Below, one piece after another: positions 1,013-18,031 of a stretch of DNA of 64,000 bases (within the stretch, counting starts at the first letter, position 1; the number at the start of each line of letters is the position of its first letter). Position numbers and translations under genes: made by a program. Source of the stretch: Bacteroidales bacterium (GTDB lineage: Bacteria; Bacteroidota; Bacteroidia; Bacteroidales; VadinHA17); NCBI GenBank assembly GCA_007132995.1, contig SLNP01000015.1, positions 5,329 to 69,328 of the forward strand. Reading direction: 5' to 3'. Below the pieces are notes generated by a model. It saw only the letters and a program-made list of their open reading frames with translations, was not told the origin of the DNA and ran no database searches.

Positions 1013-1483
1013 ATGACAGATAGCGTTGAGAAAATAGTCTCCTCCTATAAGAGCGGCAGGAGGGAGGATCTTATACCAATTCTTCAAAAGATACAAGAGG
1101 CCGTCGGATATATTCCGGAGGAGGCGATAGTGGCTATCGGGAATAAGCTTAAAATAAGTACCACAAAGATATATGGGCTGGCCACCTTTTATGATCAGTT
1201 CAGGTTTTTCCCACAAGGGAAGATACATATAACTATATGTAATGGTACAACATGCTATATTAACGGAGCCTCAGATGTTATAGAGGCTGTAAGGGAGTTT
1301 GTGGGTACTGAGCCCGGTGATACATCGCGCGATAAGTTGTTCAGCTACGAGGTAACAACCTGTGTCGGCGGGTGCCACTCCTCTCCTGTTATTCTTGTAA
1401 ACGGAGAGTATCACGCCCCTGTAACACCGGAGAGTATTTCCGAGATGCTGAGCAAACTCAGAGTTGTAATCGAAAATGAGTGA
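1013..1483 (+). CDS. nuoE: NuoE-like [2Fe-2S] subunit of a multimeric NAD(P)H-linked [FeFe] hydrogenase (HydC/HndA type)
   Basis: 156 aa. Motifs ICNGTTCYINGA...TTCVGGCHSSPV give the Cx4C...Cx3C pattern of the NuoE family. It overlaps the next gene through a stop/start GTGA. Confidence 0.85.
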   Translation: MTDSVEKIVSSYKSGRREDLIPILQKIQEAVGYIPEEAIVAIGNKLKISTTKIYGLATFYDQFRFFPQGKIHITICNGTTCYINGASDVIEAVREFVGTEPGDTSRDKLFSYEVTTCVGGCHSSPVILVNGEYHAPVTPESISEMLSKLRVVIENE

Positions 1484-3426
1484 TAAGCCCGATGGATGAT
1501 ACTATAAAGAGTTTTTTAACTGAAAAGGTACTGCTTGCCGGTAGTGATACCCTGCCGCCGGAGGTGGAATCGAGACTTGAACTTATAAGGCGCGACAGGG
1601 TCGATAATCCGGTGATATTTGTCTCATATGGAACAGCAGCTGTTATATCGGGTGCCGACAGAACAGTAAGGGCGATAGAAGAGTTCCTGGAAGAGAGCGG
1701 CTCTGATGCCATCACCGTAAAGGCACGGTGCGATGGCCCCGCCGACTACGAACCCATGGTCGGTATTCAGATGCCGGGAAAAAACCGGCTTCTCTTCAGA
1801 AATGTGACTGATGAGAAGGTCGACTCTCTTCTTAACTCAGTATTTCATTCAGATATTCCTGCCGACGACCTTGTGGGACAGGCAGGGGCCAGAGGTTTTG
1901 TGAAATGGCATGGAATCACCTTCCTCTCAGAGCTACTCTGGTATGCCCTGCAGAAAAGAGTGGTTACCGAATCGGAGTGCTGGTACACCCCCGAAAATAT
2001 TGAGGAGTATATAGCAAGAGGAGGTTACCGATCTTTTGTAAAGACAATAAGACACTACACCCTTGAAGAGGTGTGCGACATAATAGAGAAGAGCGGACTG
2101 AGGGGTAGAAGCGGAGGAGGATTCCCGACAGGACAGAAATGGAAGAGTGCCCTCAATACATCTTCCAACACAAAGTACCTTATATGTAACGCAAAAGAGA
2201 GCGATCCGGGGGGATATACAGACAGGGTGCTGATTGAGAATGATCCTCACAGAGTTATAGAGGGAATTGCCATAGCGGCATATGGAACCGGTGCTACATC
2301 GGCCTATATCTATCTGCGAGCAGGCGCCCGGATAGCACAGCGGCGCCTTGAAGAGTCTATCGCAAGGGCCAGGGAGTACGGTCTGCTGGGTCATAACATC
2401 TTTTCCAGTGGCTTTAACCTTGATATCACCGTGGCAATGGAGGCTGGAGCCTTCGTGTGCGGAGAAGAGACAGCCCTGATAGGCAGTCTGAGTGGCAAAA
2501 GGGGCATGCCTGAAATTAAACCGCCATTTCCCGCCCACTCGGGACTCTTCGGAAAGCCAACAGTAATAAACAATGTTGAGACATTGATGAATGTGCCCAA
2601 AATTATGTCTCACGGGCCTGAATGGTTTCGTGAAACCGGATCTGAAAATAGTAGCGGTACCAAGGTTCTGGCTCTCGGAGGCAGAACTGTAAGATCGGGT
2701 ATTGTAGAGGTTGAGATGGGTACTACGCTGAAAACTATATTTGAAGAGATAGCCGGTGGCGTTGCTGACGGAGGTGAGCTGAAGGCCCTGCAACTGGGTG
2801 GTGCCCTTGGATCATTTATTGATCCGGAGATGCTGGAGACTGAACTTGACTTCGAATCTATGGCATCGGCGGGGGCCGGAATAGGCTCAGGCAGCTTTAC
2901 AACAATTGGAGACGATACCTGTGTTGTAGATCTTGTCCGATACTACATGGACTACCTCCATAGCGAGAGCTGTGGTAAATGTATTCCCTGCCGTGAAGGT
3001 ACCGGAAGAATGTCTGAGATTCTGCGTGGCATTACCGAGAAACCGGATGATACCGGAGAGGGAACCCTGGAAAGATTTAAGGGTGTCATGCAGCTTGAAA
3101 CGATAGCAGAGGTTATGAATGAGACCTCCCTTTGCGGACTGGGACAGAATGCCCCGAAACCATTTCTCTCTGCCATTAAAGCTTTCCGCGATGAGTTCGA
3201 ACAACACATCTTCGACCGTAACTGCAGTGCCAATGTTTGCCGGGAACTGAGACGGTTTGTGATCGATGTGGAGAAGTGTACCGGATGCACTGCCTGCGCC
3301 TCCAGGTGCCCGGTAAACGCGATATATGGAACCAGATTGCAGCCATTCTTTATCGTTGAGGATAAATGCATAGGCTGCGGACTATGCTATGAGGTATGTA
3401 AGTTCAGTGCAATATCAGTAAAGTAG
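1480..3426 (+). CDS. nuoF: NuoF-like flavoprotein subunit (HydB/HndC type) with a C-terminal 2x[4Fe-4S] ferredoxin domain
   Basis: 648 aa. FMN/NADH motifs are GRSGGGFPTGQKWKS and CNAKESDPGGYTDR. The NuoF cluster motif is CGKCIPCREG...SLCGLGQ. The C-terminal ferredoxin motifs are CTGCTACASRCP and CIGCGLCYEVC. The start is GTG at 1480; an alternative ATG is at 1492. Confidence 0.85.
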   Translation: MISPMDDTIKSFLTEKVLLAGSDTLPPEVESRLELIRRDRVDNPVIFVSYGTAAVISGADRTVRAIEEFLEESGSDAITVKARCDGPADYEPMVGIQMPGKNRLLFRNVTDEKVDSLLNSVFHSDIPADDLVGQAGARGFVKWHGITFLSELLWYALQKRVVTESECWYTPENIEEYIARGGYRSFVKTIRHYTLEEVCDIIEKSGLRGRSGGGFPTGQKWKSALNTSSNTKYLICNAKESDPGGYTDRVLIENDPHRVIEGIAIAAYGTGATSAYIYLRAGARIAQRRLEESIARAREYGLLGHNIFSSGFNLDITVAMEAGAFVCGEETALIGSLSGKRGMPEIKPPFPAHSGLFGKPTVINNVETLMNVPKIMSHGPEWFRETGSENSSGTKVLALGGRTVRSGIVEVEMGTTLKTIFEEIAGGVADGGELKALQLGGALGSFIDPEMLETELDFESMASAGAGIGSGSFTTIGDDTCVVDLVRYYMDYLHSESCGKCIPCREGTGRMSEILRGITEKPDDTGEGTLERFKGVMQLETIAEVMNETSLCGLGQNAPKPFLSAIKAFRDEFEQHIFDRNCSANVCRELRRFVIDVEKCTGCTACASRCPVNAIYGTRLQPFFIVEDKCIGCGLCYEVCKFSAISVK

Positions 3427-3430
3427 GGCC

Positions 3431-5146
3431 ATGCAGATTACTATAGAGGTGAATAACAGGAAGATAAAGGCTGAAAAAGGTGAGACTATTCTGTCAGCCC
3501 TTAACAGAAACGGAATCCTTATCCCTACACTCTGCCGGATGAGAGACTTTACCCCTACCGGGGCATGCAGGATGTGCGTGGTAGAGGTGGAGGGTAGAGA
3601 TCGCCTCGTAACTGCCTGCTCGCAACCGGTAGAGGAGTGGATGCGTATTATGACCCACTCGCAGAGAGTTATCAGATCAAGGAAGACGATAGTGGAACTT
3701 CTGCTCTCAAATCACCCCGATGACTGCCTCTACTGTAACAGGAATCTTAACTGTGAATTGCAGCGCCTGGCTGAAGAGCTCAATATTAACGAGAGACGCA
3801 TACGGGGTAAGAAGATTCAGATGAGGCTTGACCAGTCGAGTCATTCGGTGGTCAGAGAGCTCTCAAAGTGTATTCTGTGTGGCAGATGTATCAGGGTATG
3901 TGACGAAATTGTAACCGCAACAACCCTCGGATTTCTTAACAGAGGGAAAACTGCGCATGTTGGTACAGCAATGGACAGGGACTTTAACTTCTCCAGCTGC
4001 CTCAACTGCGGGCAGTGTATATTGGTATGCCCTACCGGCGCACTTCATGAGAAGCACAATACCACTGAGGTAATGGAGTCTCTTAACCGCGACAATGTAA
4101 CCAATGTGATATGCTACTCTCCGGCGGTGCCCTGCGCTGTAGCCGAAATAATGGGATTAAAATACTCGAAAGAGTTCGACCTTGTGCTTAATGCGGTGTT
4201 GCGCCAGATAGGATTCGATAAGGTATATAACTGCGGTTTTGCCACCGACCTCTATATAGACAAGGCAGCAAGGTCACTCTATAGCAGTGTAAAGGAGGGC
4301 AGAAGAGAGACAACATACCTCTCTGCATGTCCGGCATGGCTGAAGTATGCCGAACAGAAGCTGCCCGGGGAAATCGGATCTCTCTCAACCCTGAAAATAC
4401 CGCAGCAGATTGCCGGAGCTATTGTTAAGGGTGTTGTTGCAGAAGATATCTCCGGGGGCAATTCAGAGATATTTACTGTCTCTGTTACTCCATGTACCGG
4501 AATGAAGTTTGAATCGCGCCGTGACGGAATGACCAGGAAGGGGGTTAGTGATATTGATGCAGTAATTACTGTTACCGAACTCTCGAGGCTTATAAGACTT
4601 TTCGGTGTTGATATTACCAGCCCCTCCGGAGAGCCGGCCGATGCTCCGATGAATATCAGAAGCTCTTCGGCTCTCCTTACTGAGGTTTCAGGTGGCTATA
4701 CCGAAGCAATTGTACGCTCTCTTATGCACCTGAGTGGTTCAGGTGAACCGGAGAAGAAAATTTTCAGGAAGCTTCGTAATAACCATGGATTCAGAGATTT
4801 GTCGCTTGCTATTGGTGATGAACAGTACAGTTTCGCTATCGTGGATGGTCTGCACTCACTCGAAAGACTCAATGCAGAGATCAGTGGCGGTAAAAGTTAC
4901 GATATTGTTGAGGTCATGGTGTGCCCCTCCGGATGCGTTCACGGTGGGGGGCTGGCCTTTTTCTCTTCCAAAGAGGTTCTCAGAACAAGAGCTAGACAGA
5001 TATATGCCACGGAAGAGTCCGAGGCTGTTAATACCGCCTCGCGCTCACCTGCCCTGCTCTCATTTTATGAGGAGTATGGAGATTTTAGTGATGAGCGGGG
5101 AGAGATACTTCACACCAAATACAATGCACGCGATGTGCTGCTTTAA
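3431..5146 (+). CDS. hydA: [FeFe]-hydrogenase large subunit, M3 architecture ([2Fe-2S] + His-ligated [4Fe-4S] + 2x[4Fe-4S] + H-domain), with a non-canonical L1 motif
   Basis: 571 aa. N-terminal cluster motifs: CRMRDFTPTGACRMC, HPDDCLYCNRNLNC, CILCGRCIRVC and CLNCGQCILVCP. H-domain motifs: LSACPAW (L1), VTPCTGMKFE (L2) and EVMVCPSGCVHGGG (L3). Confidence 0.85.
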   Translation: MQITIEVNNRKIKAEKGETILSALNRNGILIPTLCRMRDFTPTGACRMCVVEVEGRDRLVTACSQPVEEWMRIMTHSQRVIRSRKTIVELLLSNHPDDCLYCNRNLNCELQRLAEELNINERRIRGKKIQMRLDQSSHSVVRELSKCILCGRCIRVCDEIVTATTLGFLNRGKTAHVGTAMDRDFNFSSCLNCGQCILVCPTGALHEKHNTTEVMESLNRDNVTNVICYSPAVPCAVAEIMGLKYSKEFDLVLNAVLRQIGFDKVYNCGFATDLYIDKAARSLYSSVKEGRRETTYLSACPAWLKYAEQKLPGEIGSLSTLKIPQQIAGAIVKGVVAEDISGGNSEIFTVSVTPCTGMKFESRRDGMTRKGVSDIDAVITVTELSRLIRLFGVDITSPSGEPADAPMNIRSSSALLTEVSGGYTEAIVRSLMHLSGSGEPEKKIFRKLRNNHGFRDLSLAIGDEQYSFAIVDGLHSLERLNAEISGGKSYDIVEVMVCPSGCVHGGGLAFFSSKEVLRTRARQIYATEESEAVNTASRSPALLSFYEEYGDFSDERGEILHTKYNARDVLL

Positions 5147-5187: not shown

Positions 5188-7170
5188 GTGGTAAAAGAGA
5201 TACAGAGTATGTTGGTATATACAATAAAAGAGCTTTGCAGAACATGCTATACCTGTGTAAGGGAGTGCCCTGCAAAGGCTATTAGAATAGTAGGCGGACA
5301 GGCTGAGGTTATCGAGGACAGGTGTATTGCCTGCGGCAACTGTACCAAAGTATGCAGCCAGGGGGCGAAGGTTTTTCTGAAAACAAACGATAAGGTTGAA
5401 AGGTTGCTCGATTCCGACAGGGAGGTTGCAGCTATTGTTGCACCGAGCTTCCCGGCCGAGTTTCAGGAAGCACCCACCCATAAACATCTGGTTGGAATGG
5501 TTCGTGCCCTGGGTTTCAATTATGTGTCGGAGGTCTCTTTCGGCGCAGATCTGATTGCGGCAAAGTACAGGGAGTTGCTTGCAAAAACTCCCGGGGGAAC
5601 CTATATCAGTTCTGACTGCCCTTCGATAGTGAACTTTATTAGATTCTATCATCCTCATCTGGCACCGAACCTGGTTCCTCTTGTCTCGCCCATGGTTGCC
5701 ATGATGAAGGTTGTGAGAAGCATGTATGGCGAGGATACCCCGGTGGTTTTTATCGGACCCTGCGTGGCAAAAAAATCGGAGAGCAACACTCTCGATGCGG
5801 CTATAACATTTCTGGAGCTGAGAGAGATGTTTGAGGGCAGGGGTATAACCGCCGATAATATTGAACCTTCGGAGTTTGACCCTCCTCTGGGAGGCAAGGG
5901 TGCAATTTTTCCTGTTACCAGAGGCCTGCTTCAGACCGCCGGTATAAGTGATGATGCCATTACAGGAAACATTATTGCGGCCGAAGGCAGAATCGATTTT
6001 CAGGAGGCGATAAAAGAGTATGAGGCAGGAATGATAAGTCAACATCTGGAGCTGCTCTGCTGTGAGGGATGTATAATGGGCCCCGGCCTTTCGAGAAAGG
6101 GGAAGCCCTATAACAGAAGGGTGCTGGTAAGCAAGTATGCTCAGAGCAAAATGGAAGACTTTGACCTAAGGCAGTGGGAAAAGGATATAGAGAGGTTTTC
6201 CGGACTCGATTTCTATATTAAACATCTGCCCGATGACCACAGGAGGCTTATGCCATCGAAGGATGACCTTAAGGAGGTTCTGGAGTCAATGGGCAAATTT
6301 ACAGATAAAGATCACCTTGATTGTGGTGCCTGTGGATATGAAACCTGTATGGAACATGCCGGTGCCATAAAGCATGGCCTTGCCGAGGTGGAGATGTGCC
6401 TGCCTTATATAATTGAGAAGCTGCACAAGTCGGTTGAGGATCTGGCCCTCTCGAACAAAAAACTGACCACAATGCAACAGGCTCTCAAGCAGTCTGAAAA
6501 ACTTGCCCATATGGGTCAGCTATCTGCCGGAATTGCTCATGAACTCAACAATCCTCTTGGGGTTGTAATAATGTACAGCAACCTGCTTCTTGAGGAGGAG
6601 GGAACCAGTGACCAGTTGAAAGAGGATCTTAAACTGATAGTAGAACAGGCCGGAAGGTGCAAGAAGATAGTGGCAGGACTTCTCAATTTCGCCAGAAAGA
6701 GCCAGGTGAACCATCAGTCTATCAATATGAGGGAGTTTATAGAGCAGGGTCTCGATAGCCTTATATTGCCGGAAAATGTGAATGTGGTAATTAACGACCA
6801 TACGACAAATCCAAACCTGATGGTCGACACCGAACAGATGACTCAGGTTGTTACCAATATTATTAAAAATGCCTATGAGGCCATGCCTGATGGTGGTGAT
6901 ATAACCATTACCATTGAGGATAGCTTCGGCGATGTCTCGTTTGTAATAGCCGATACTGGAAGCGGGATAAGACAGGAGGATCTCTCCAAGGTCTTCGAAC
7001 CCTTCTTTACTACCAAACCTATTGGACTGGGTACAGGCCTGGGGCTCGCTACAACATACGGTATAGTAAAGATGCATAAGGGACAGATAACCGTCGAGTC
7101 AAACTGTGACCCGGAGAAAGGGCCAACAGGCACAAGCTTTAAAATAATACTACCCAGAAGAAGAGAGTAG
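5188..7170 (+). CDS. Fusion of a sensory-type [FeFe]-hydrogenase domain with a histidine kinase (group C1-like, putative H2 sensor kinase)
   Basis: 660 aa. Motifs in order: CRTCYTCVRECP and CIACGNCTKVC; SSDCPS / IGPCVAKKSE / LLCCEGCIMGPG; CGACGYETC-x16-C; H-box GIAHELNNPL; N box NIIKNAYEAM; G boxes DTGSGI and GTGLGLA. The start is GTG at 5188 or ATG at 5209. Confidence 0.8.
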   Translation: MVKEIQSMLVYTIKELCRTCYTCVRECPAKAIRIVGGQAEVIEDRCIACGNCTKVCSQGAKVFLKTNDKVERLLDSDREVAAIVAPSFPAEFQEAPTHKHLVGMVRALGFNYVSEVSFGADLIAAKYRELLAKTPGGTYISSDCPSIVNFIRFYHPHLAPNLVPLVSPMVAMMKVVRSMYGEDTPVVFIGPCVAKKSESNTLDAAITFLELREMFEGRGITADNIEPSEFDPPLGGKGAIFPVTRGLLQTAGISDDAITGNIIAAEGRIDFQEAIKEYEAGMISQHLELLCCEGCIMGPGLSRKGKPYNRRVLVSKYAQSKMEDFDLRQWEKDIERFSGLDFYIKHLPDDHRRLMPSKDDLKEVLESMGKFTDKDHLDCGACGYETCMEHAGAIKHGLAEVEMCLPYIIEKLHKSVEDLALSNKKLTTMQQALKQSEKLAHMGQLSAGIAHELNNPLGVVIMYSNLLLEEEGTSDQLKEDLKLIVEQAGRCKKIVAGLLNFARKSQVNHQSINMREFIEQGLDSLILPENVNVVINDHTTNPNLMVDTEQMTQVVTNIIKNAYEAMPDGGDITITIEDSFGDVSFVIADTGSGIRQEDLSKVFEPFFTTKPIGLGTGLGLATTYGIVKMHKGQITVESNCDPEKGPTGTSFKIILPRRRE

Positions 7171-8817: not shown

Positions 8818-9465
8818 ATGGTATCAAAGGGGAATTTACCGGCAAAGACTGTAGAGAGGCTTAGTGAGTACAGGAGAACTCTTCTTGACTCTCTTGAGGA
8901 GAAGAGAAGTTATATATTCTCTCATGAGCTTGCAGCGCTTCTGCATATCACAGCCGTGCAGGTGCGTCGCGACCTTATGCTTATAGGCTACTCCAGTGTG
9001 TTGAAGAAGGGTTATGATGTTCAGGAGCTTATCAATACCATTGGCGAAATTCTGGATTCCGATAAGGGGCTGAATGTAGCGGTAATAGGTATAGGTAATC
9101 TTGGCAGGGCGATAACCTCATACTTCAAGGGTAAAAGGTCTAAACTCAATGTGATTGCATCGTTCGACAACGACCCGGAGAAGATAAACAAGGTTATATC
9201 GGGAGTTAAATGCTATCCGATAAGTGATATGGGAGATGTTGTGAAGACTCTCGATGTATCGATAGTGATTCTTACGGTTCCTCCTGAAGAGGCTGCAGCT
9301 GTTGCAGAGGAGACTATCCGTTACGGAGTGAAGGGCATAATGAATTTTACAACGGTGCCCCTTAATGTGCCTCCCGGTATATTTCTTGAGCAGTACGATA
9401 TGATAACTTCGGTAGAAAAACTTGCCTATTTTGTAAAGGAGAGCAGCTCGCGGCTGAGTGGATGA
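8818..9465 (+). CDS. rex: Redox-sensing transcriptional repressor Rex
   Basis: The track ORF starts at TTG 8764; I prefer ATG 8818 (MVSKGNLPAKTVERLSEYRRTL...). It has a winged-helix N-terminus plus the Rossmann motif VAVIGIGNLGRAI, and the length of 215 aa is typical of Rex. Confidence 0.75.
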   Translation: MVSKGNLPAKTVERLSEYRRTLLDSLEEKRSYIFSHELAALLHITAVQVRRDLMLIGYSSVLKKGYDVQELINTIGEILDSDKGLNVAVIGIGNLGRAITSYFKGKRSKLNVIASFDNDPEKINKVISGVKCYPISDMGDVVKTLDVSIVILTVPPEEAAAVAEETIRYGVKGIMNFTTVPLNVPPGIFLEQYDMITSVEKLAYFVKESSSRLSG

Positions 9466-9531: not shown

Positions 9532-10959
9532 GTGATGAAATTTTTTCCGGAAAAGCTGAATATTCCCGACAAAAGGATGAAACCATTTATCGACCCGGGC
9601 GAGATATGGGAACTGATAAGAGGTACCCCGGCCGATAAAGCGAGCGTGAAGGCTGTTATTGCCAAGGCTCTCGATAAAAACCGGCTTACCCTCAAAGAGA
9701 CAGCGATACTGGTAAATGCGACTGACAAAGATCTTATAGAGGAGATTAAGGAGGGTGCACGCGAGCTTAAGGAGAGGGTTTACGGCAACAGAATTGTGCT
9801 GTTTGCACCCCTCTATGTGGGTAACAGGTGCAGTAACGACTGCCGCTATTGCGGCTTTAGGGTTACCAACAGAAACGCCCTGAGAAAGACCCTGTCAGAC
9901 AAGGAGATAGTAACCGAGGTCGAGGCTCTGGAGGATAATGGACAGAAGAGGCTGATACTTGTATATGGAGAGCACCCCGAGTACTCGCCTGAATATATTG
10001 CCCACACCGTAGATCTGGTTTATGGTGTTAAAAAGGGAGCGGGTGAAATACGAAGGGTCAATATAAATGCTGCCCCTTTCGATATCGATGGTTTCAGAAC
10101 CATTGGGAAAGCAGGTATAGGTACATACCAGATATTTCAGGAGACCTACCATCCGGATGCATACAGAGAGTACCACCTGTCGGGCAGGAAGTCCGATTAC
10201 GAATGGCGTCTTACCGCCCTAGACAGGGCCCAGGAGGCTGGTATAGACGATGTTGGCATTGGTGCTCTCTTCGGGCTATACGACTGGCGCTTCGAGGTTC
10301 TTGGCCTTGTCCGGCATACCAACCATCTTGAGGCCTGTTACAATATAGGTCCGCACACCATCAGTTTTCCCCGTATAAAGGATGCTGCCGCCCTCGATAT
10401 TGACGGCAGATACATGGTGAGCGATGAGGAGTTTACCAGGCTGGTTGCCATACTCAGGCTGGCTGTCCCCTATACCGGACTCATACTGACTGCCCGCGAG
10501 GATAGTGATGTGCGCAGAGAGGTTCTTAAATTTGGGGTTTCTCAGATTGACGGAGGAACCAAAATTGAGATAGGCTCCTATTCCGACATAAAAAATGAGC
10601 AGCAGAATCTCAATAAGGAGCAGTTCAAAATTGCTGATGAGCGATCGCTTGCAGAGGTGATAGATGAGCTGCTTTCAACCGGATACCTTCCCTCTTTTTG
10701 TACCTCCTGCTACCGCATGGGAAGGACAGGCGAACACTTTATGGAGTTCTCAGTACCGGGGTTTATCAAGAGGTTCTGTACACCCAACGCCATTATGACG
10801 CTTGCTGAATATATATGCGACTATGCCGGGCCCGGGCTTGCTGAAAAAGGGTGGAAAGCAATAGATAAGGAGATGGAAAAACTCGATCCTCAGGTGGCTG
10901 AAAAGACCAGGGAGAGAGTCGAACTGATAAAAGGGGGGGAGAGAGATCTCTACTTCTGA
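9532..10959 (+). CDS. hydG: [FeFe]-hydrogenase maturase HydG (radical SAM tyrosine lyase)
   Basis: 475 aa. It has the radical-SAM motif CSNDCRYCGF and the C-terminal auxiliary-cluster motif CTSCYRMGRTGEHF...C. It sits in a hydrogenase context. Confidence 0.85.
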   Translation: MMKFFPEKLNIPDKRMKPFIDPGEIWELIRGTPADKASVKAVIAKALDKNRLTLKETAILVNATDKDLIEEIKEGARELKERVYGNRIVLFAPLYVGNRCSNDCRYCGFRVTNRNALRKTLSDKEIVTEVEALEDNGQKRLILVYGEHPEYSPEYIAHTVDLVYGVKKGAGEIRRVNINAAPFDIDGFRTIGKAGIGTYQIFQETYHPDAYREYHLSGRKSDYEWRLTALDRAQEAGIDDVGIGALFGLYDWRFEVLGLVRHTNHLEACYNIGPHTISFPRIKDAAALDIDGRYMVSDEEFTRLVAILRLAVPYTGLILTAREDSDVRREVLKFGVSQIDGGTKIEIGSYSDIKNEQQNLNKEQFKIADERSLAEVIDELLSTGYLPSFCTSCYRMGRTGEHFMEFSVPGFIKRFCTPNAIMTLAEYICDYAGPGLAEKGWKAIDKEMEKLDPQVAEKTRERVELIKGGERDLYF

Positions 10960-11562: not shown

Positions 11563-14115
11563 CTACCTGATAGTGTGCCCGAAGAAAATCGAGTTCATAA
11601 ATATTCTGTCTGTTCCGTACCAGATGGCCCTGAAGTTGGTGTCCTCATAGAGTGATATAACCCTGCCACCCGAAACATGAGCGGTCGCGAATGCCGCTCC
11701 GGCCACTCTCTCAATGTTCTCATCGGTTACATATCCGCTTAGCAGAGGTGTATCGGTAAACCTTATCGGTGTGTTGAATATATCTCTGCCCGGTTCATAA
11801 AGCGATGCTCCACGCTTGAAAACAGGCAGTTCATCCCTGTAGTATCCGTAGCAGAGAGGGTGTGTCAGATCCATCACCGCATTGAAGATGGTTCCGGGGA
11901 TGTTGTGTGGCGATCTGGACCTGTCACCGTAAACCGGATTTTCCGGGGCGGGATTCCTTACACCCGGTATGGTTGTGGTGGTAATGAAGTTGTTTCTCGC
12001 CAGCCAGCCGTTGCCTCCCTTGTAACCTATTATCACTCCACCGGCACGATTCCACTGTCTGAGCGATTCCACCCCCCGCTCACTGATATTTGGTGAGCCG
12101 GCAATAATAATAACATTGTACCTGTCGGTCGAGATGTTGTTGAATCTCTGCGTTGGCACCAGTGTTACGGGTATATTGTAACGAACATCGAGCAGGTTCC
12201 ATATCTCTCCGGCATCCCTGCTGTTAATGCCAGAGTCAACCATCAGGGCAATTGACGGCCGGCGAAGCAGTGTAAAGCTTGAACTGCCAAGATCAGCCCC
12301 CTGGGTAGGTGTAAGCCCGGTTGTTGTTCCAAATATCTCGGTGTTGTATCTTCCCGCTACCTCACTGAGGTAGTTGTTGAGCTCATCCCTCTCCATCGGC
12401 TGGTCGAAGGCGTGTATCATAATGGTGCCATTGGGAAAACTCCTGCGCAGGCTGCCATCATCGACAGAGAAGGGCTGTGTGGCCACCCTGATAGTCAGGT
12501 CTGCATCGAGAAGCGTGAAGAGGAGAGAGTAGGAGAGGTAGTCGTTCATTTCGAAGAGGTAGGCGTATGTCTCTGCATCTGCGCTTAGCCTGCCTTGGTT
12601 TATTGCTGGGGCAGCGGCTACAACCTCACCCTTCAGGTCGGCGACAGCCCTTGACTCTCTTACCTCTGCGAAGGGTATATTGAACGACATCGCTACATTC
12701 CATGCCGAAATATCGTAGAACCTGGTTCCCTCAAACTCAAAAATCGGCTCGAAAAGAGACTTAACAAACCTGTAGGCAGGCTGTTCGGTCGGTATAAGGT
12801 AGCTCTGCCCTGCCTTAAAGGTTATCCCGTCGACGGTAATGTCTCTCTCAATATTGTGAATTTCAATTTGATGCTGTAGCAGGTGGTCAATAAAGAAGGA
12901 GAGCTTAGATTTATCATCGGGTTCGGTAAAGAGATATCCCTTTACCGGATCTTTCCGGGCCTCTTCAATCGCAGAAATATAGAAATCTCTCTGAAACTCA
13001 AGCAGCCTTGTACCCATCGCAAGGGCAGCATCTGTTGTTGAGAGCGCCATGGTAAACTGATTCCTGATGGCAAAGGGGAATGACAACAATCCCGATGCAA
13101 TTTCACGGAGATGTGACTTCGGCCCTCCCTGCTCTATCAGAATACCGATCGAACCATGAAGGTCAGGATATGAAGAGCCATAACCCGGATACAGGTTGTC
13201 AAAGATCTCCTCCTGAAAGTAGAGGCTACCTATCCTGTCCATATGTTTGGCATGGAATTTTGCGATCTCTGCGGTAAGGTCATAATTCTTTTGGGGAACA
13301 ACAGGGTTGTTGGCCAGAGGATCGCCCGGCTCCCAGAAAAAGGTCGAGTTAGCACCCATCTCATGCTGGTCCATAACAATAGTGGGGAACCACCTGTGAA
13401 ATGCAGCAACCCTTCCCCTGCTCTCGGGGTGCTGAAGCATCAGCCAGTCACGGTTAAGGTCGAACCAGTAGTGGTTAGTCCTTCCTCCCGGCCAGGGCTC
13501 ACTGAATACCCGTGAGTTGGGATCTGCTATCGGATCTACACTCCTGTGCATATTTACCCATGTAGAGTGCCTGTGGTAGCCGTCGGGGTTCATGTTGGGG
13601 TCGATAAGAATTACTGTGTTGGCCAACACCTCGTCAATCTCACTGCCCATACCTGCAACAAAATGGTAAGCCGCAACAAGAGATGCATTCTGTGCACTCG
13701 ACTCATTACCATGAACACCATAAGCCAGTTTGATTATTACCGGCATTTCAGAAATGTTGAGCGATGGCGAAACCTCCGGGTCTCTTAGCTGAAGATGCCG
13801 TTGCCGGATACCCTCAATATTTCTGATGTTTTCCGGAGAGCTTACAATGAGCTTGCCAAGAGCTCTCTGCTGATGACTCCTGGCATACTCCTTCCATACA
13901 GCGCGATCAGAAAGACGCGCCATCTCTTTCATGTAGAGTATAAGGTTGTCATGGGTAGCATGCCACTCGCCCACCTCATGACCGATAATATCTGCCGGAA
14001 CCGGTATGGCCGGATCGTAACTCACATGCTTTGGGAGATAGTAGCTCAGGGATACCTGTGCACCAAGCATTAAGGGGAGCAGCAGCAGCGGAATAGTTGA
14101 AAGAAGTCTCTTCAT
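11563..14115 (-). CDS. Secreted M14-family zinc carboxypeptidase-like protein, paralog A (850 aa)
   Basis: It has a signal peptide. M14 motifs: HGNESS (HxxE), DPNMNPDGY, LNRDW, DQHEMG and GILIEQ. A long C-terminal non-peptidase region follows. Confidence 0.8.
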   Translation of the reverse strand: MKRLLSTIPLLLLPLMLGAQVSLSYYLPKHVSYDPAIPVPADIIGHEVGEWHATHDNLILYMKEMARLSDRAVWKEYARSHQQRALGKLIVSSPENIRNIEGIRQRHLQLRDPEVSPSLNISEMPVIIKLAYGVHGNESSAQNASLVAAYHFVAGMGSEIDEVLANTVILIDPNMNPDGYHRHSTWVNMHRSVDPIADPNSRVFSEPWPGGRTNHYWFDLNRDWLMLQHPESRGRVAAFHRWFPTIVMDQHEMGANSTFFWEPGDPLANNPVVPQKNYDLTAEIAKFHAKHMDRIGSLYFQEEIFDNLYPGYGSSYPDLHGSIGILIEQGGPKSHLREIASGLLSFPFAIRNQFTMALSTTDAALAMGTRLLEFQRDFYISAIEEARKDPVKGYLFTEPDDKSKLSFFIDHLLQHQIEIHNIERDITVDGITFKAGQSYLIPTEQPAYRFVKSLFEPIFEFEGTRFYDISAWNVAMSFNIPFAEVRESRAVADLKGEVVAAAPAINQGRLSADAETYAYLFEMNDYLSYSLLFTLLDADLTIRVATQPFSVDDGSLRRSFPNGTIMIHAFDQPMERDELNNYLSEVAGRYNTEIFGTTTGLTPTQGADLGSSSFTLLRRPSIALMVDSGINSRDAGEIWNLLDVRYNIPVTLVPTQRFNNISTDRYNVIIIAGSPNISERGVESLRQWNRAGGVIIGYKGGNGWLARNNFITTTTIPGVRNPAPENPVYGDRSRSPHNIPGTIFNAVMDLTHPLCYGYYRDELPVFKRGASLYEPGRDIFNTPIRFTDTPLLSGYVTDENIERVAGAAFATAHVSGGRVISLYEDTNFRAIWYGTDRIFMNSIFFGHTIR

Positions 14116-14202: not shown

Positions 14203-16752
14203 TTATCTTATTATATGCCCGAAGAATATGCTGTTCATAAATATCTTGGTGGTACCATACCATATACCACGGAAGTTGGTGTTGTCATACAGTGATATCA
14301 CTCTTCCTCCTGATGTGTGTGCGGTTGCAAAGGCGGTGCCCGCTATTCTCTCAACATTCTCATCGCTTGCATGCCCGCTAAGCAGTGGCGATCCGGTATA
14401 TCTTACCGGTGTGTTGTAGATACCCGGACCAGGCTCAATGGCCGCGGCACCATGTTTCAGAACCGGTAACTCAGATCGGGTATATCCGTAGCAGAGCGGG
14501 TGGGTGAGGTCCATAACGGTATTGAATATGGTTCCCGGTATGCCATGTGGCGAATCGGGCCTGTCGCCGTATACCGGATTATCAGGTCTGGGCGCACTGA
14601 CTCCCGGAACAGTACTTATGTTTATGAAATCGTTCCTTGCCAGCCATGTGTTACCGCCCTTGTAGCCTATAATGACGCCTCCCCTGCGGTTCCATGTTCT
14701 CAGCGACTCCAGGCCGGCCTGACTCAGCGATGGTGACCCTGCGACTATAATGACATTATAGCGGTCGGGCGATATGAAATTAAATCTTGTAGCCGGAACC
14801 AGTGTTACCGGAATGCCAAACTTAACATCGAGCAGATGCCAAATCTCTCCGGCGTCTCTGCTATTTATTCCGCTATCAACCATAAGCGCTATAGAGGGCT
14901 TGCGTAACAGTGCCATATTACCGCTTCCAAGATCTATGCCCACGGGGGTTAGCCCGGTAGTTGTACCGTAGACATCAACATTGTATCTCTCTGCCAGCCT
15001 TCTCATAAAGCTATACAACTCATCTCTCTCCATTGGCTGGTCAAAGGCGTGTACCATTACGGTGCCGTTGGGGAAATCTCTTCTGAGGGTTCCGTCATCT
15101 ATGGTGAAGGGCTGTTTGGCAACCCTTGTGGTGAGGCCTGCATCAAGAAGCTTGTATAGCATTGAGTATGAGAAGTACTCATTGATTTCAAATAGATACG
15201 CATAGGCATCACGACTCGCTGTCAGACTTCCGCTTTTTACCTCCGGAGCCTGATTTACCTGTGCTCCTCTGAGGGTAGCCGCATCTCTTGCGTTGGTAAC
15301 GGCATCGTAGGGAATGTTGAATGACATGGGGAATATCCATGTAGAGATATCGTAGAAAACATCAGAGTCAAACTCGAAAATAGGCTCAAAAAGAGATCTT
15401 ATAAACCTGAAATTGGGCTGTGCCATTGGTATCATAAAGCTCTCTTCTGAAGTGTATGTGAAGCCGTCTATGGAAATGTCGTTTTCAAGACGGTATACCT
15501 CTATCTGATGTTGCAGCAGGTAGTCGACGAATCGTGAGAGCTTGGTTTTGTCGTCGGTCTCACTAAAAACATAAGCCTTTACCGGGTGGTTTTCAGCCTC
15601 TTCCATGGCTGTGATAAAGAAGTCTCTCTGGAATTCCAGGAGTTTTTCTCTCATCGATATACCCGCTTCCACACTTGAGAGGCCTATGGTGAACTGGTTT
15701 TTTATTGCAAAGGGGAACGATAGAAGTCCTGAGGGAACCTCACGAAGATGAGATTTTGGTCCCGCCTGCTCTATAAGTATTCCGATGGAACCATGAATAT
15801 CGGGATATGAAGAGCCCTTCCCTACATAGAAGTCATCGAAACGCTCCTCCTGGAAATAGAGGCTCCCTATCTGATCAAAAAATTTGGCATGATATTTCGC
15901 TATTTCGCCTGTCAGATCGTAGTTTATCTGCGGAACAAGGGGGTTGTTTCTCGATGGGTCGCCAGGCTGCCAGAAGAAGGTGGTCGCTGCACCCATCTCG
16001 TGCTGGTCACTGAATATAGTGGGAAGCCAGCGGTGAAAGGATTCTACCTTTCCTATTGACTCGGGATGCTGCAGCATAAGATAGTCACGGTTAAGGTCGA
16101 ACCAGTAGTGGTTAGACCTTCCCCCCGGCCAGGGCTCACTGAAAACCCTTGAATTGGGGTCGGGAATGGGATCTGTGCTGCGGTGCATGTTGACCCATGT
16201 TGAGTGGCGATGATAGCCGTCGGGGTTCATGTTAGGGTCTATAAGTATAACGGTATTCCTTAAGGTGTTCTCCATCTCCTCGCCCATGCCGGCAATAAAA
16301 TGGTAGGCAGCAACAAGAGAGGCGTTCTGGGCACTGGACTCGTTACCGTGAACACCGTAGGCCAGCTTAACAACTACCGGCATCTCCGACAGGTTGAGCG
16401 ATGGTGATACCGCGGGATCCCTTAGCTTGAGATGTCGCTCACGGATGCTCTCTATATTTCTTATGTTCTCCGGAGAGCTGATTATAAGCTCACCAAGGGC
16501 CCTCTGCTCATGACTCCTGGCATACTCCTGCCATATAGCACGGTCAGAGATGCGTGCCAGCTCTTTCATGTAAAGTATCAGGTTGTCGTGGGTGGCATGC
16601 CACTCGCCAACCTCGTGACCTATTATGTCGGCAGGTACAGGTATTGCCGGATTGTAACTCATATGGTCCGGCAGGTAGTAGCTGAGAGGCTTCTGGCAAA
16701 AAAGAAGTGCCGGTATGGCAAGCAGTGCAACAGTAAAAAGTAATCTTCTCAT
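14203..16752 (-). CDS. Secreted M14-family zinc carboxypeptidase-like protein, paralog B (849 aa)
   Basis: Same motif set as paralog A and collinear over its full length. By eye it is roughly three quarters identical, with stretches such as AIPVPADIIGHEVGEWHATHDNLILYMKE fully identical. Confidence 0.8.
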   Translation of the reverse strand: MRRLLFTVALLAIPALLFCQKPLSYYLPDHMSYNPAIPVPADIIGHEVGEWHATHDNLILYMKELARISDRAIWQEYARSHEQRALGELIISSPENIRNIESIRERHLKLRDPAVSPSLNLSEMPVVVKLAYGVHGNESSAQNASLVAAYHFIAGMGEEMENTLRNTVILIDPNMNPDGYHRHSTWVNMHRSTDPIPDPNSRVFSEPWPGGRSNHYWFDLNRDYLMLQHPESIGKVESFHRWLPTIFSDQHEMGAATTFFWQPGDPSRNNPLVPQINYDLTGEIAKYHAKFFDQIGSLYFQEERFDDFYVGKGSSYPDIHGSIGILIEQAGPKSHLREVPSGLLSFPFAIKNQFTIGLSSVEAGISMREKLLEFQRDFFITAMEEAENHPVKAYVFSETDDKTKLSRFVDYLLQHQIEVYRLENDISIDGFTYTSEESFMIPMAQPNFRFIRSLFEPIFEFDSDVFYDISTWIFPMSFNIPYDAVTNARDAATLRGAQVNQAPEVKSGSLTASRDAYAYLFEINEYFSYSMLYKLLDAGLTTRVAKQPFTIDDGTLRRDFPNGTVMVHAFDQPMERDELYSFMRRLAERYNVDVYGTTTGLTPVGIDLGSGNMALLRKPSIALMVDSGINSRDAGEIWHLLDVKFGIPVTLVPATRFNFISPDRYNVIIVAGSPSLSQAGLESLRTWNRRGGVIIGYKGGNTWLARNDFINISTVPGVSAPRPDNPVYGDRPDSPHGIPGTIFNTVMDLTHPLCYGYTRSELPVLKHGAAAIEPGPGIYNTPVRYTGSPLLSGHASDENVERIAGTAFATAHTSGGRVISLYDNTNFRGIWYGTTKIFMNSIFFGHIIR

Positions 16753-16933: not shown

Positions 16934-18031
16934 TTAGCCCCCTATAGCCTCTTTCCTTCTCTTGTAGTGTAGCGAGTCGCCCCACTCTCCGTAACCTATT
17001 TCGGCATTGGTAATGCCAAGCCTTGCCTCAAGGCACATCTTACAATCTTCGGCAGAGTCGTCGGTGCATGGTTTGTTGTCATACAGTTTATAACTGTCAC
17101 GATACTTTCCGGGAGTTATGTTGGGCATCACAATATTGGCTCCCACCATGATTCCCTTCTCCCTGCCAACCGGGTCTATCGCCTGCAGGGCGGTTGCTGC
17201 CGCTATGTTGATGTCTTTCATGACTATTCTCAGCACAGCAATCATTTTGAGGGTAAGATCAAACCTGTCGGGTAGCGGCATCAATGATGTGGTCTCGTCT
17301 ATTAATGGGGTGTCGGCATGTTCAATGTAGGGTCCCATTCCGCACATATCTATATCCATGTCGCGCATAAAGATGATATCATTTGCCAGATGAGATATCT
17401 TTTGCCACGGCAGCCCAATCATAACCCCTGTTCCGGTCTGATAATCAAGCTCCTTTAGTGTGTTAAGCGATTCAACTCTTCTCTTGAAAAGGTGGTGGCC
17501 GTCGTCGGGGTGCAGCCTTTTGTAAAGGGACGGATCGGAGGCCTCTATCCTCAGCAGATACCTTCTGGCACCGGCCTCTCTCCACCTCCTGTAAACCGCG
17601 GGCTCCTGCTCTCCCAGCGAAATGGTTATGCCAAGACTGTTATCGGTGGCCTCCATAACTCTTTTAAGCAGCCCCTCAACCCTGTCGGCAAAGGTATCAC
17701 TCTCAATCTCGCCCGACTGCAGAGCGATTGACCCGTAATCATTCCTGTATGCAAAGAGTGCCGCCTCTACTATCTCATCATCTGTAAGGTTGTAGCGCTC
17801 CAGATTACGGTTACCTCTCCTGATTCCGCAATAGAGACAGTTTTTACCGCAAACATTCGAAAATTCGATAAGCCCGCGGTAATATACCTTCTTGCCAACA
17901 TACCTCTCTTTTATCTCTGATGCCGCCTTGAAAAGCATCTTCTTCTCCTCGCCATTGGATGAGAGCATGGTCTCTATCTGTTCTCTTGTGTGGTTGTCGC
18001 CCCTGATAATATCTCTGAAAAAACTACTCAT
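16934..18031 (-). CDS. hydE: [FeFe]-hydrogenase maturase HydE (radical SAM)
   Basis: 365 aa. It has the radical-SAM motif CGKNCLYCGIRRGN, BioB/HydE-like length and layout, and lies near hydG and the hydrogenase genes. Confidence 0.75.
   Translation of the reverse strand: MSSFFRDIIRGDNHTREQIETMLSSNGEEKKMLFKAASEIKERYVGKKVYYRGLIEFSNVCGKNCLYCGIRRGNRNLERYNLTDDEIVEAALFAYRNDYGSIALQSGEIESDTFADRVEGLLKRVMEATDNSLGITISLGEQEPAVYRRWREAGARRYLLRIEASDPSLYKRLHPDDGHHLFKRRVESLNTLKELDYQTGTGVMIGLPWQKISHLANDIIFMRDMDIDMCGMGPYIEHADTPLIDETTSLMPLPDRFDLTLKMIAVLRIVMKDINIAAATALQAIDPVGREKGIMVGANIVMPNITPGKYRDSYKLYDNKPCTDDSAEDCKMCLEARLGITNAEIGYGEWGDSLHYKRRKEAIGG

Follow-up and report, generated by a model that had tools for sequence, protein, structure and literature searches.

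A putative H2 sensor kinase in one polypeptide: an [FeFe]-hydrogenase H-domain joined by a heptad-register helix to a histidine kinase in a Bacteroidales hydrogenase operon

Ever since the 'sensory' [FeFe]-hydrogenases were named, it has been an open question whether they sense H2 and how a signal leaves the metal site, and the biochemistry to date has been carried out on PAS-type or output-less proteins, without a measurable signalling output. A locus from a Bacteroidales bacterium of the VadinHA17 lineage raises both questions for a single protein. It lies in a stretch of 64,000 nucleotides, hereafter the window (GenBank assembly GCA_007132995.1, contig SLNP01000015.1, positions 5,329 to 69,328 of the forward strand), in which a preliminary description made from the sequence alone had read one open frame as an [FeFe]-hydrogenase H-domain fused directly to a histidine kinase. 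Our analysis suggests that this fusion protein is probably a cytoplasmic, one-polypeptide, H2-dependent sensor kinase, HydS-like and belonging to the putative sensory group C. Coordinates are window positions, and residue numbers are counted from the Met at ATG 5209 unless stated otherwise.

In the list of open reading frames the gene appears as an open frame at 5188 to 7170 (+), with 660 codons counted from GTG 5188, and the preliminary description had let it begin there. Translation almost certainly begins at ATG 5209 instead, seven codons further in, because nearly all of the best 120 homologues (69–99% identity) have 653 residues and begin with MLVYTIKE, the sequence encoded from that ATG. 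At E ≤ 1e-10 the protein has more than 7,400 database matches, the best 120 of them with the full architecture in common; judged from these matches, the frame is not a chance one. Pfam searches (positions in the 660-residue numbering from GTG 5188) returned Fer4 families twice, Fe_hyd_lg_C at 79–299 (4e-41), PF04060 'FeS' at 377–406, HisKA at 442–504 and HATPase_c at 547–658. The order of the parts is thus two [4Fe-4S] motifs, the H-domain, a Cx2Cx4Cx16C motif, a 47-residue leucine-heptad helix, HisKA and HATPase_c. The ferredoxin motifs, the H-cluster motifs L1 to L3, Cx2Cx4Cx16C and AHELNNPL, all of which had been picked out by the preliminary description, were located at the coordinates in Table 1. 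No transmembrane segment was found, the highest 19-residue Kyte-Doolittle score being 1.51, and therefore the protein is predicted to be soluble and cytoplasmic. An AlphaFold2 model from a 36-sequence alignment (69–81% identity; mean predicted local distance difference test score 66.8) was used only for secondary structure and fold class, and its Foldseek matches formed two sets, the cytoplasmic domains of histidine kinases and the [FeFe]-hydrogenases (8a6t, 7p8n, 8zqd).

A phmmer search of the PDB sequences aligned the N-terminal 250 residues with CpI and with the bifurcating HydA chains 7p5h and 8a6t; among the CpI entries 6glz scored best, the C299D variant, whose chain reads ...FTSDCPGW... 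in this region. For the assignment of single residues, the fusion protein was aligned using MAFFT with CpI, with the window's own HydA and with a PAS-type paralogue; the CpI sequence was checked only by its landmarks (C299, C300, M353, C355, K358, E361, M497, C499 and C503) and by its agreement with the PDB alignments. The eight cysteines of the ferredoxin motifs fall on the F-cluster cysteines of CpI (147/150/153/157 and 190/193/196/200). In the H-domain, Cys299, Cys300, Met353, Cys355, Lys358 and Glu361 of CpI correspond to Asp136, Cys137, Gly183, Cys185, Lys188 and Glu191, and Met497, Ala498, Cys499 and Cys503 to Leu283, Cys284, Cys285 and Cys288, while Ala-Pro-Ser230-232 is matched by Ala-Pro-Ser78-80, Pro324 is kept as Pro161 and Phe417 is also kept. 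Related loci were collected with N-terminal peptide patterns of the clade, one genome per species: a relative was found in 248 genomes, and 80 loci were retained, every one of them from a metagenome-assembled genome of Bacteroidales/Bacteroidota. In all 80 orthologues D299, C300, G353, C355, K358, E361, L497, C499 and C503 (CpI numbering) are invariant; positions 230–232, 324 and 417 lay outside this tabulation and are read from the fusion protein. By this alignment all four cysteine ligands of the H-cluster (CpI 300, 355, 499 and 503) are present, as expected of a member of the H-domain family, and so are the residues that hold the [2Fe] subcluster (Lys358, Ser232/Pro231, Pro324 and Glu361). 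The substitutions at 299, 353 and 497 agree with those suspected from the motifs alone.

The three motifs are altered, as the preliminary description had said, but its spacing for L3 has to be corrected. Compared with group A, L3 lacks one residue and reads CxGC (ELLCCEGC, Cx2C) instead of CxxGC, and this deletion between the last two ligands is common to every group-C-like sequence examined; therefore, of the two cysteines in 'CC' the latter is taken to be the equivalent of Cys499. The former, which a gapless alignment would make the ligand, was rejected: it is Ala in 4 of the 80 orthologues, and the PAS-type paralogue and most other group-C-like lineages sampled have Phe-Cys at this place. 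The protein is not a prototypical group A enzyme, as seen from its motifs SSDCPS, IGPCVAKKSE and ELLCCEGC, in place of the canonical TSCCPxW, MPCxxKxxE and ExMxCxxGCxxGGG, and from its departure from the proton pathway Cys299/Glu279/Ser319, and it scores far under the cutoffs of the NCBIfam group A and B1 models. Its predicted pocket at 299/353/497, Asp/Gly/Leu, resembles those of the characterised HydS enzymes, TmHydS (Ala/Gly/Ser) and TamHydS (Ala/Ser/Leu), both of which bind an H-cluster (PMC8163306, PMC10055695).

Evidence on the route by which a signal might exit the metal module comes from the segment that follows it. Residues 372–397 form an exact Cx2Cx4Cx16C motif, matched by PF04060 'FeS' at 2.6e-8 in the whole protein and at 2.3e-9 in a scan of residues 295–445, and its cysteines are invariant in 36 homologues. 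This motif, which the preliminary description had connected with sensory hydrogenases, was indeed described for the M2e/M2f 'HydS' enzymes by Land et al., who suggested a signalling role (PMC8163306). No PAS or GAF domain was found between the metallodomain and the kinase, as had been proposed: Pfam on residues 295–445 at E ≤ 10 returned only PF04060, the AlphaFold2 model has helices only from residue 300 to 500, and neither these nor the Foldseek matches place any such domain at residues ~390–440. The same Pfam scan gave weak, sub-threshold PAS matches (E 0.011–0.019) in a 627-residue paralogue from the related locus L002. Thus the strict definition of the M2f type, with its C-terminal PAS, does not apply, because no PAS is present and the kinase stands in its place, with only 47 residues between the cluster and the phospho-His.

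To see how this linker varies, an exhaustive HMMER search was made over 1.84 billion representatives at 50% identity and the best 150 proteins were taken, of which 120 had enough of the H-domain to be classified. Forty of them are direct kinase fusions, 9 have 140–415 extra residues between the H-domain module and the kinase, and the remaining 71 (PAS-type and others) have no kinase. Among 52 sequences in which the distance from the last cluster Cys to the phospho-His was taken, it is 47 residues in 27, 40 in 6, 33 in 4, 54 in 4 and 68 in 2. The lengths fall on 7n+5 in 43 of these 52 lineages (P ~4e-28 against a uniform register), and 16 of the 25 lengths other than 47 are still in register (P ~2e-8), both P values treating the lineages as independent, which is not fully true. 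In the 47-residue class, moreover, Leu, Ile or Val occupies +1, +8, +15, +22 and +29 after Cys397 in 89–100% of the sequences. From the heptad-quantised length and the leucine heptad it is concluded that Cys397, the predicted fourth ligand of the accessory cluster, heads a leucine-heptad helix predicted to continue into helix 1 of the DHp domain, which bears out and extends the short coiled coil noted before. No description of a heptad-quantised linker was found in the literature read. A neighbour-joining tree of the 120 N-terminal modules suggested an intermingling of kinase-type with PAS-type proteins (18 parsimony changes); it was dropped, since it includes fragments and is too rough for any claim to rest on it.

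The C-terminal part has the features of a HisKA-type sensor kinase, namely the H-box and the N, G1, F and G2 boxes. His444 of the H-box and the boxes of HATPase_c (N550/N554, D582/G584/G586, F596/F599 and G608/G610/G612) do not vary among the 36 homologues aligned, and the closest solved relatives of the kinase are ZraS, KinB and CckA, with sequence and fold matches also to HK853. A stand-alone receiver and a REC-HisKA-HATPase_c hybrid kinase always lie directly 3' of the fusion gene in the related loci (65–82% and 58–69% identity, respectively, by tblastn), and these two are its probable signalling partners.

Compared with the known systems, the protein fits the HydS type as defined in PMC8163306, with two N-terminal [4Fe-4S] motifs, non-conserved residues at 299, 353 and 497, and a C-terminal Cx2Cx4Cx16C. 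Its gene also lies directly downstream of hydCBA, beside a group A hydrogenase of the bifurcating type. TmHydS (group C, M2f) likewise has two N-terminal [4Fe-4S] motifs and Gly353, and a helix comes after its C-terminal four-Cys cluster (PMC8163306, PMC10055695), but it ends in a PAS domain without a kinase, whereas here the helix enters HisKA directly, and it has Ala299 and Ser497 in place of Asp299 and Leu497; it is of the same type as the window's own PAS-type paralogue. TamHydS (group D, M2e) shares the lack of PAS, the Cx2Cx4Cx16C motif and Leu497, and its gene adjoins that of a bifurcating group A enzyme, a separate gene for a histidine kinase-like ATPase being nearby (PMC8163306), but it has no fused output domain and carries Ala299. 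Since group D has Ser or Thr at 353 while Gly353 is found in 80/80 orthologues, and since the kinase is fused, the protein does not fall into group D. In the [NiFe] 2b systems HoxBC-HoxJ and HupUV-HupT a slow, hydrogenase-derived H2 sensor also controls a kinase that regulates hydrogenase genes (as given in Table 1 of PMC5037454 and in PMC8163306), but metal site and fold are unrelated, and the sensor and kinase are separate and joined via the PAS-like domain of HoxJ, in contrast to the one chain and coiled coil here.

The kind of fusion has been catalogued before. HydDB lists [FeFe] group C1 as 'histidine kinase-linked (putative)' (PMC5037454), which agrees with the preliminary description, and the Bacteroidales isolate Petrimonas mucosa has, in a passage of PMC7768429, a C1 gene (e.g. 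ING2E5A_0849) beside its hnd genes. The relevant passages of a 2024 survey of Hydrogenedentota give the name 'BfuT' to a group C hydrogenase that carries a His-kinase domain and whose gene adjoins bfuA; it is assigned there to bfu clusters of sub-type V, found in Hydrogenedentota and in Caldithrix abyssi (database match WP_006928132.1), and Perlabentimonas, Tenuifilum and Williamwhitmania have two bfuT genes, one of them downstream of bfuA, the other upstream of bfuC (PMC11406978). As far as these passages go, BfuT and C1 proteins resemble that of the window as H-domain sensors with a fused or linked histidine kinase, encoded beside a trimeric HydABC/BfuABC, and the two-sensor layout in the three Bacteroidota is the same as in the window. 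The class labels differ between the sources, the Bacteroidales gene similar to a homologue being called C1 (PMC7768429) and the kinase fusions of Hydrogenedentota and Caldithrix C3 (PMC11406978). Both are genome surveys, whose passages on these genes do not mention Asp299, a heptad linker or HydA pocket variants. Biochemistry on any kinase-fused member, or a paper combining autophosphorylation with an [FeFe]-hydrogenase, was not found in the literature covered, outside which most subscription journals lie, and as far as found the fusion is thus biochemically uncharacterised. On this point the preliminary description stands, while its estimate of novelty was too high: the fusion is abundant (at least 40 lineages and 248 species-level genomes), and both the fusion and the two-sensor layout in Bacteroidota were already described in 2024 in the passages cited (PMC11406978). 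The novelty is therefore modest; what is new here are the heptad-quantised linker, the clade-specific Asp299, the HydA pocket variants and the Rex-like palindrome before hydC.

The Asp at the proton-relay position deserves separate consideration. It is found in 80/80 orthologues of the Bacteroidales clade and in 0/120 representatives of other lineages, which carry Pro, Thr, Ala, Ser, His, Asn or Cys, and Asp299 is therefore, in this sampling, a trait of the clade and not general to kinase fusions. Its invariance alone is no proof of selection, because identity in the clade is high overall (mean column identity 80–81%). In CpI and CrHydA1 the variants C299D and C169D retain 30–80% of the H2-release activity, in line with the partial activity given in the preliminary description, compared with <1% for Ala or Ser at the same position, and H2 uptake of C169D is only 1–2% of wild type (PMC6226526). 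The suggestion that the sensor may turn over H2 thus remains plausible but weak, because of this low uptake and because the canonical proton pathway beyond position 299 is lost (Glu279 replaced by Lys and Ser319 by Val in the MAFFT alignment).

The genes around the fusion gene are listed in Table 1. By tblastn their order is hydC-hydB-hydA-[fusion]-REC-[REC-HK]-rex, usually followed by hydG and the TM1266-like gene, and the order from hydC to rex is kept in nearly all those of the 80 loci that are of sufficient length. Near-identical contigs (GCA_007118335.1, GCA_003557255.1 and one ENA assembly) confirm the gene calls of the operon, whose structure rests on spacing and synteny because a promoter and terminator scan was uninformative for Bacteroidota, the counts of sigma-70 promoters and intrinsic terminators being below shuffled expectation. 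Most of the 80 related loci have ~1 kb between rex and hydG, which are 69 nt apart in the window, and in some relatives hydG is on the opposite strand or missing. The 178-residue protein encoded after hydG gave two matches to the CPF_0552 family (NF052672, 131 bits) and a weak one to TM1266, the 'iron-only hydrogenase system regulator', and its gene is 3' of hydG in most related loci that retain hydG. A 365-residue radical-SAM protein encoded close to the cluster (16934–18031, –) is a candidate HydE maturase. Between the two, 11563–14115 and 14203–16752 (–) encode tandem paralogues of ~850 residues with an N-terminal M14 zinc-carboxypeptidase domain each, which are also present in the near-identical contigs.

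The adjacent HydA is closest to the bifurcating HydA1 of T. kivui (E = 5e-114), and its motifs read LSACPAW and TPCTGMKFE. Its pocket is predicted to be non-canonical (Ala299/Thr353/Met358): in the HydA orthologues Cys299 is replaced by Ala in 68/71, Met353 by Thr or Ser, and Lys358 by Met in 70/71, while Lys359 is kept, and the window HydA scores under the NCBIfam group A cutoffs. On the other side of hydC, a gene on the opposite strand encodes a second putative H-domain sensor with two [4Fe-4S] motifs, an H-domain, Cx2Cx4Cx16C, a coiled coil and, in relatives, a weak PAS match; its pocket in relatives has Asn299 and Gly353, with Lys358 replaced. The full gene is seen in the related loci L081 (3290–5197, –) and L002 (1503–3386, –) and encodes 635 residues in the near-identical contigs, where it is followed beyond the left edge, also on the opposite strand, by a gene for a SpoIIE-type phosphatase. 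Two different putative H2 sensors thus flank one HydABC at this locus, as judged from their motifs. The space between the gene of the PAS-type sensor and hydC holds a gene for a small thioredoxin-like [2Fe-2S] ferredoxin (519–806, –; PF01257, 7.8e-13), called as 95 or 152 residues in the near-identical contigs. Upstream of hydC there is a perfect palindrome, TTGTTAcataaaTAACAA, the sole match in the 64-kb window (0.07 expected), which was spotted by eye and then tested; in 61/61 related loci the stretch before hydC contains its core, TGTTA-N6-TAACA, most often between –74 and –88. The canonical Rex box TTGTGAA-N4-TTCACAA was tried as well and gave one match at 3 mismatches, distant from the operon and no better than chance. 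Compared with the Rex consensus the palindrome is taken to be of Rex type, and given the presence of rex in the same operon, a variant operator for Rex is the probable assignment.

Table 1. Positions of the fusion gene, its domains and motifs, and the neighbouring features in the window
Feature	Position	Strand	Basis or remark
H-domain/histidine-kinase fusion, whole gene	5209..7170	+	653 residues, stop codon included; homologue lengths and starts
Two ferredoxin-type [4Fe-4S] motifs (CRTCYTCVRECP...CIACGNCTKVC)	5236..5355	+	Cys10, 13, 16, 20 and Cys39, 42, 45, 49; Pfam Fer4
H-domain, Fe_hyd_lg_C	5422..6084	+	Pfam 4e-41; phmmer, MAFFT, Foldseek
L1 motif SSDCPS	5608-5625	+	Asp136 codon 5614-5616
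L2 motif IGPCVAKKSE	5752-5781	+	string located
L3 motif ELLCCEGCIMGPG	6049-6087	+	runs 3 nt beyond the Pfam H-domain boundary
Accessory cluster motif Cx2Cx4Cx16C (CGACGYETC-x16-C)	6322..6399	+	Cys372, 375, 380, 397; PF04060
Predicted signalling helix, last cluster ligand to phospho-His	6400..6537	+	Leu heptad; length statistics; low-confidence AlphaFold2
HisKA/DHp domain, H-box AHELNNPL	6511..6699	+	His444 at 6538-6540; Pfam 2.5e-14
HATPase_c with N, G1, F, G2 boxes	6826..7161	+	Pfam 9.2e-23
Second H-domain sensor, first 135 codons	405..1	-	runs off the left window edge
Palindrome TTGTTAcataaaTAACAA	932..949		perfect; 64 nt upstream of hydC
hydC, NuoE-like	1013-1483	+	Pfam/NCBIfam, synteny
hydB, NuoF-like	1492-3426	+	Pfam/NCBIfam, synteny
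hydA, M3-type group A-like H-domain subunit	3431-5146	+	Pfam/NCBIfam, synteny
Stand-alone receiver, 131 residues	7228-7623	+	Pfam
REC-HisKA-HATPase_c hybrid kinase, 380 residues	7625-8767	+	Pfam; starts 1 nt after the receiver
rex	8818-9465	+	NCBIfam Rex, 195 bits vs cutoff 126
hydG maturase	9535-10959	+	NCBIfam HydG, 487 bits vs cutoff 312
TM1266/CPF_0552-like protein, 178 residues	10982-11518	+	NCBIfam CPF_0552

Considering these parts and their order, the conserved ligands, the heptad constraint and the conserved operon, a working model of the sensor kinase can be set out, in which cofactor insertion, the response to H2 and its sign, and the partners and targets are inferred. HydG from the same cluster, together with HydE and HydF, would install the [2Fe] subcluster in the H-domain, and the H-cluster would then bind H2 and split it slowly, where Asp136 could serve as the first proton acceptor and permit some turnover. 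The electrons released might determine how far the attached [4Fe-4S] clusters are reduced, that of Cx2Cx4Cx16C among them, whose Cys397 opens the continuous coiled coil of 47 residues to His444. A redox-linked change of this cluster could travel along the helix and shift the balance of autokinase and phosphatase in one direction or the other, and phosphate would pass to either or both of the neighbouring receivers, the stand-alone one and that of the hybrid kinase, as their conserved adjacency suggests. The output probably controls the operon hydCBA-...-rex-hydG itself, which via the conserved palindrome would apparently also be under the control of Rex (NADH/NAD+).

Several points weigh against this reading. 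Signalling in response to H2 has been shown for no group C enzyme, and the role is putative throughout (PMC8924675); the reviews that call it so rest it on PAS (PMC8924675, PMC11216029), and H2 sensing is at present an inference for every group C enzyme. The canonical proton pathway beyond position 299 is lost, as described above. M497L impaired cofactor insertion in a prototypical enzyme (PMC10055695), although TamHydS naturally has Leu there; insertion of [2Fe] into the fusion protein is presumed, for which hydG in the cluster is circumstantial. AlphaFold2 confidence is low at the N-terminus and in the linker. No DNA-binding response regulator was found in the cluster or in the large open reading frames scanned (~1–29 kb of the window), and a receiver/hybrid pair without one suggests a multi-step or branched relay.

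Other explanations share some of this evidence. The protein might instead sense redox state or electron flux, its Fe-S chain equilibrating with reduced ferredoxin or with HydABC so that the kinase reports reductant pressure and the H-cluster is only a vent or irrelevant. The two surface-type ferredoxin clusters at the N-terminus would suit such a role, as would the constant position of the gene directly after hydA, co-located with the redox regulator rex, and the treatment of a homologue as the 'T subunit' of the BfuABC complex in a passage of PMC11406978. A plain redox sensor, however, does not need a full H-domain, let alone one whose four H-cluster ligands, Lys358 and pocket residues are under strong constraint (80/80) with hydG in the same cluster, and we regard this explanation as unlikely. 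The same residues bear on whether an H-cluster is present at all. A protein with Fe-S clusters but no H-cluster, as in the Nar1/NARF type, or a sensor of O2 or CO signalled by cluster damage or ligand binding, would accord with a pocket that deviates from the catalytic enzymes at 299, 353 and 497, with the impaired [2Fe] insertion in M497L, and with the unusual reactivity of HydS-type enzymes towards CO and O2 (PMC8163306). Yet Lys358, Ser232, Pro231, Pro324 and Glu361 are kept, the similar pockets of TmHydS and TamHydS bind a functional H-cluster (PMC8163306, PMC10055695), and the linkage to hydG and hydCBA is conserved, which makes this alternative very unlikely.

The unusual HydA raises still another possibility, namely that the fusion protein is a catalytic or structural fourth subunit of HydABC that supplies its H2 site through Asp299 and Lys358, the kinase being secondary. 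HydA has neither of these features, with Ala299 (68/71), Thr/Ser353 and Met358 (70/71), while the fusion protein has Lys358 and a proton-capable Asp, and in CpI C299A is inactive and C299D active (PMC6226526). Against this, the kinase boxes and the linker are the best-conserved parts of the fusion protein, position 299 is occupied by Pro, Thr, Ala, Ser or His in the 40 lineages elsewhere that share this fusion, and TamHydS is active with Ala299 (PMC8163306), so that HydA need not be dead; complex formation with HydABC is so far unsupported. This is the least probable of the explanations, and we give it hardly any weight. A bolder idea that keeps the kinase in its role, and that we hold to be quite improbable, is that the fusion of this clade is a turnover-competent sensor, which in the extreme form docks on HydABC and supplies a working H2 site. 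Because it alone among the three H-domain proteins of the locus pairs Asp299 with Lys358, the kinase could read a real flux of H2/H+, and if this were true, catalysis and signalling would be tied together in one polypeptide. A sensor kinase responding to H2 remains the likely reading of the protein.

The interest of the protein lies in its testability, in the evidence from the linker register, in the clade-specific Asp and in the odd neighbouring HydA. As a soluble single chain, with an H-cluster module set on a coiled coil that leads to a standard kinase, it would allow a direct autophosphorylation assay with and without H2, for which Asp136, Cys397 and the heptad register offer mutational handles, and the register itself gives direct evidence, at the level of sequence, of a path by which a signal could pass out of the metal module. 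Furthermore, the family is abundant in anaerobic Bacteroidales and present in other phyla, and such a sensor would bear on how fermenters tune their H2 production to H2 back-pressure.

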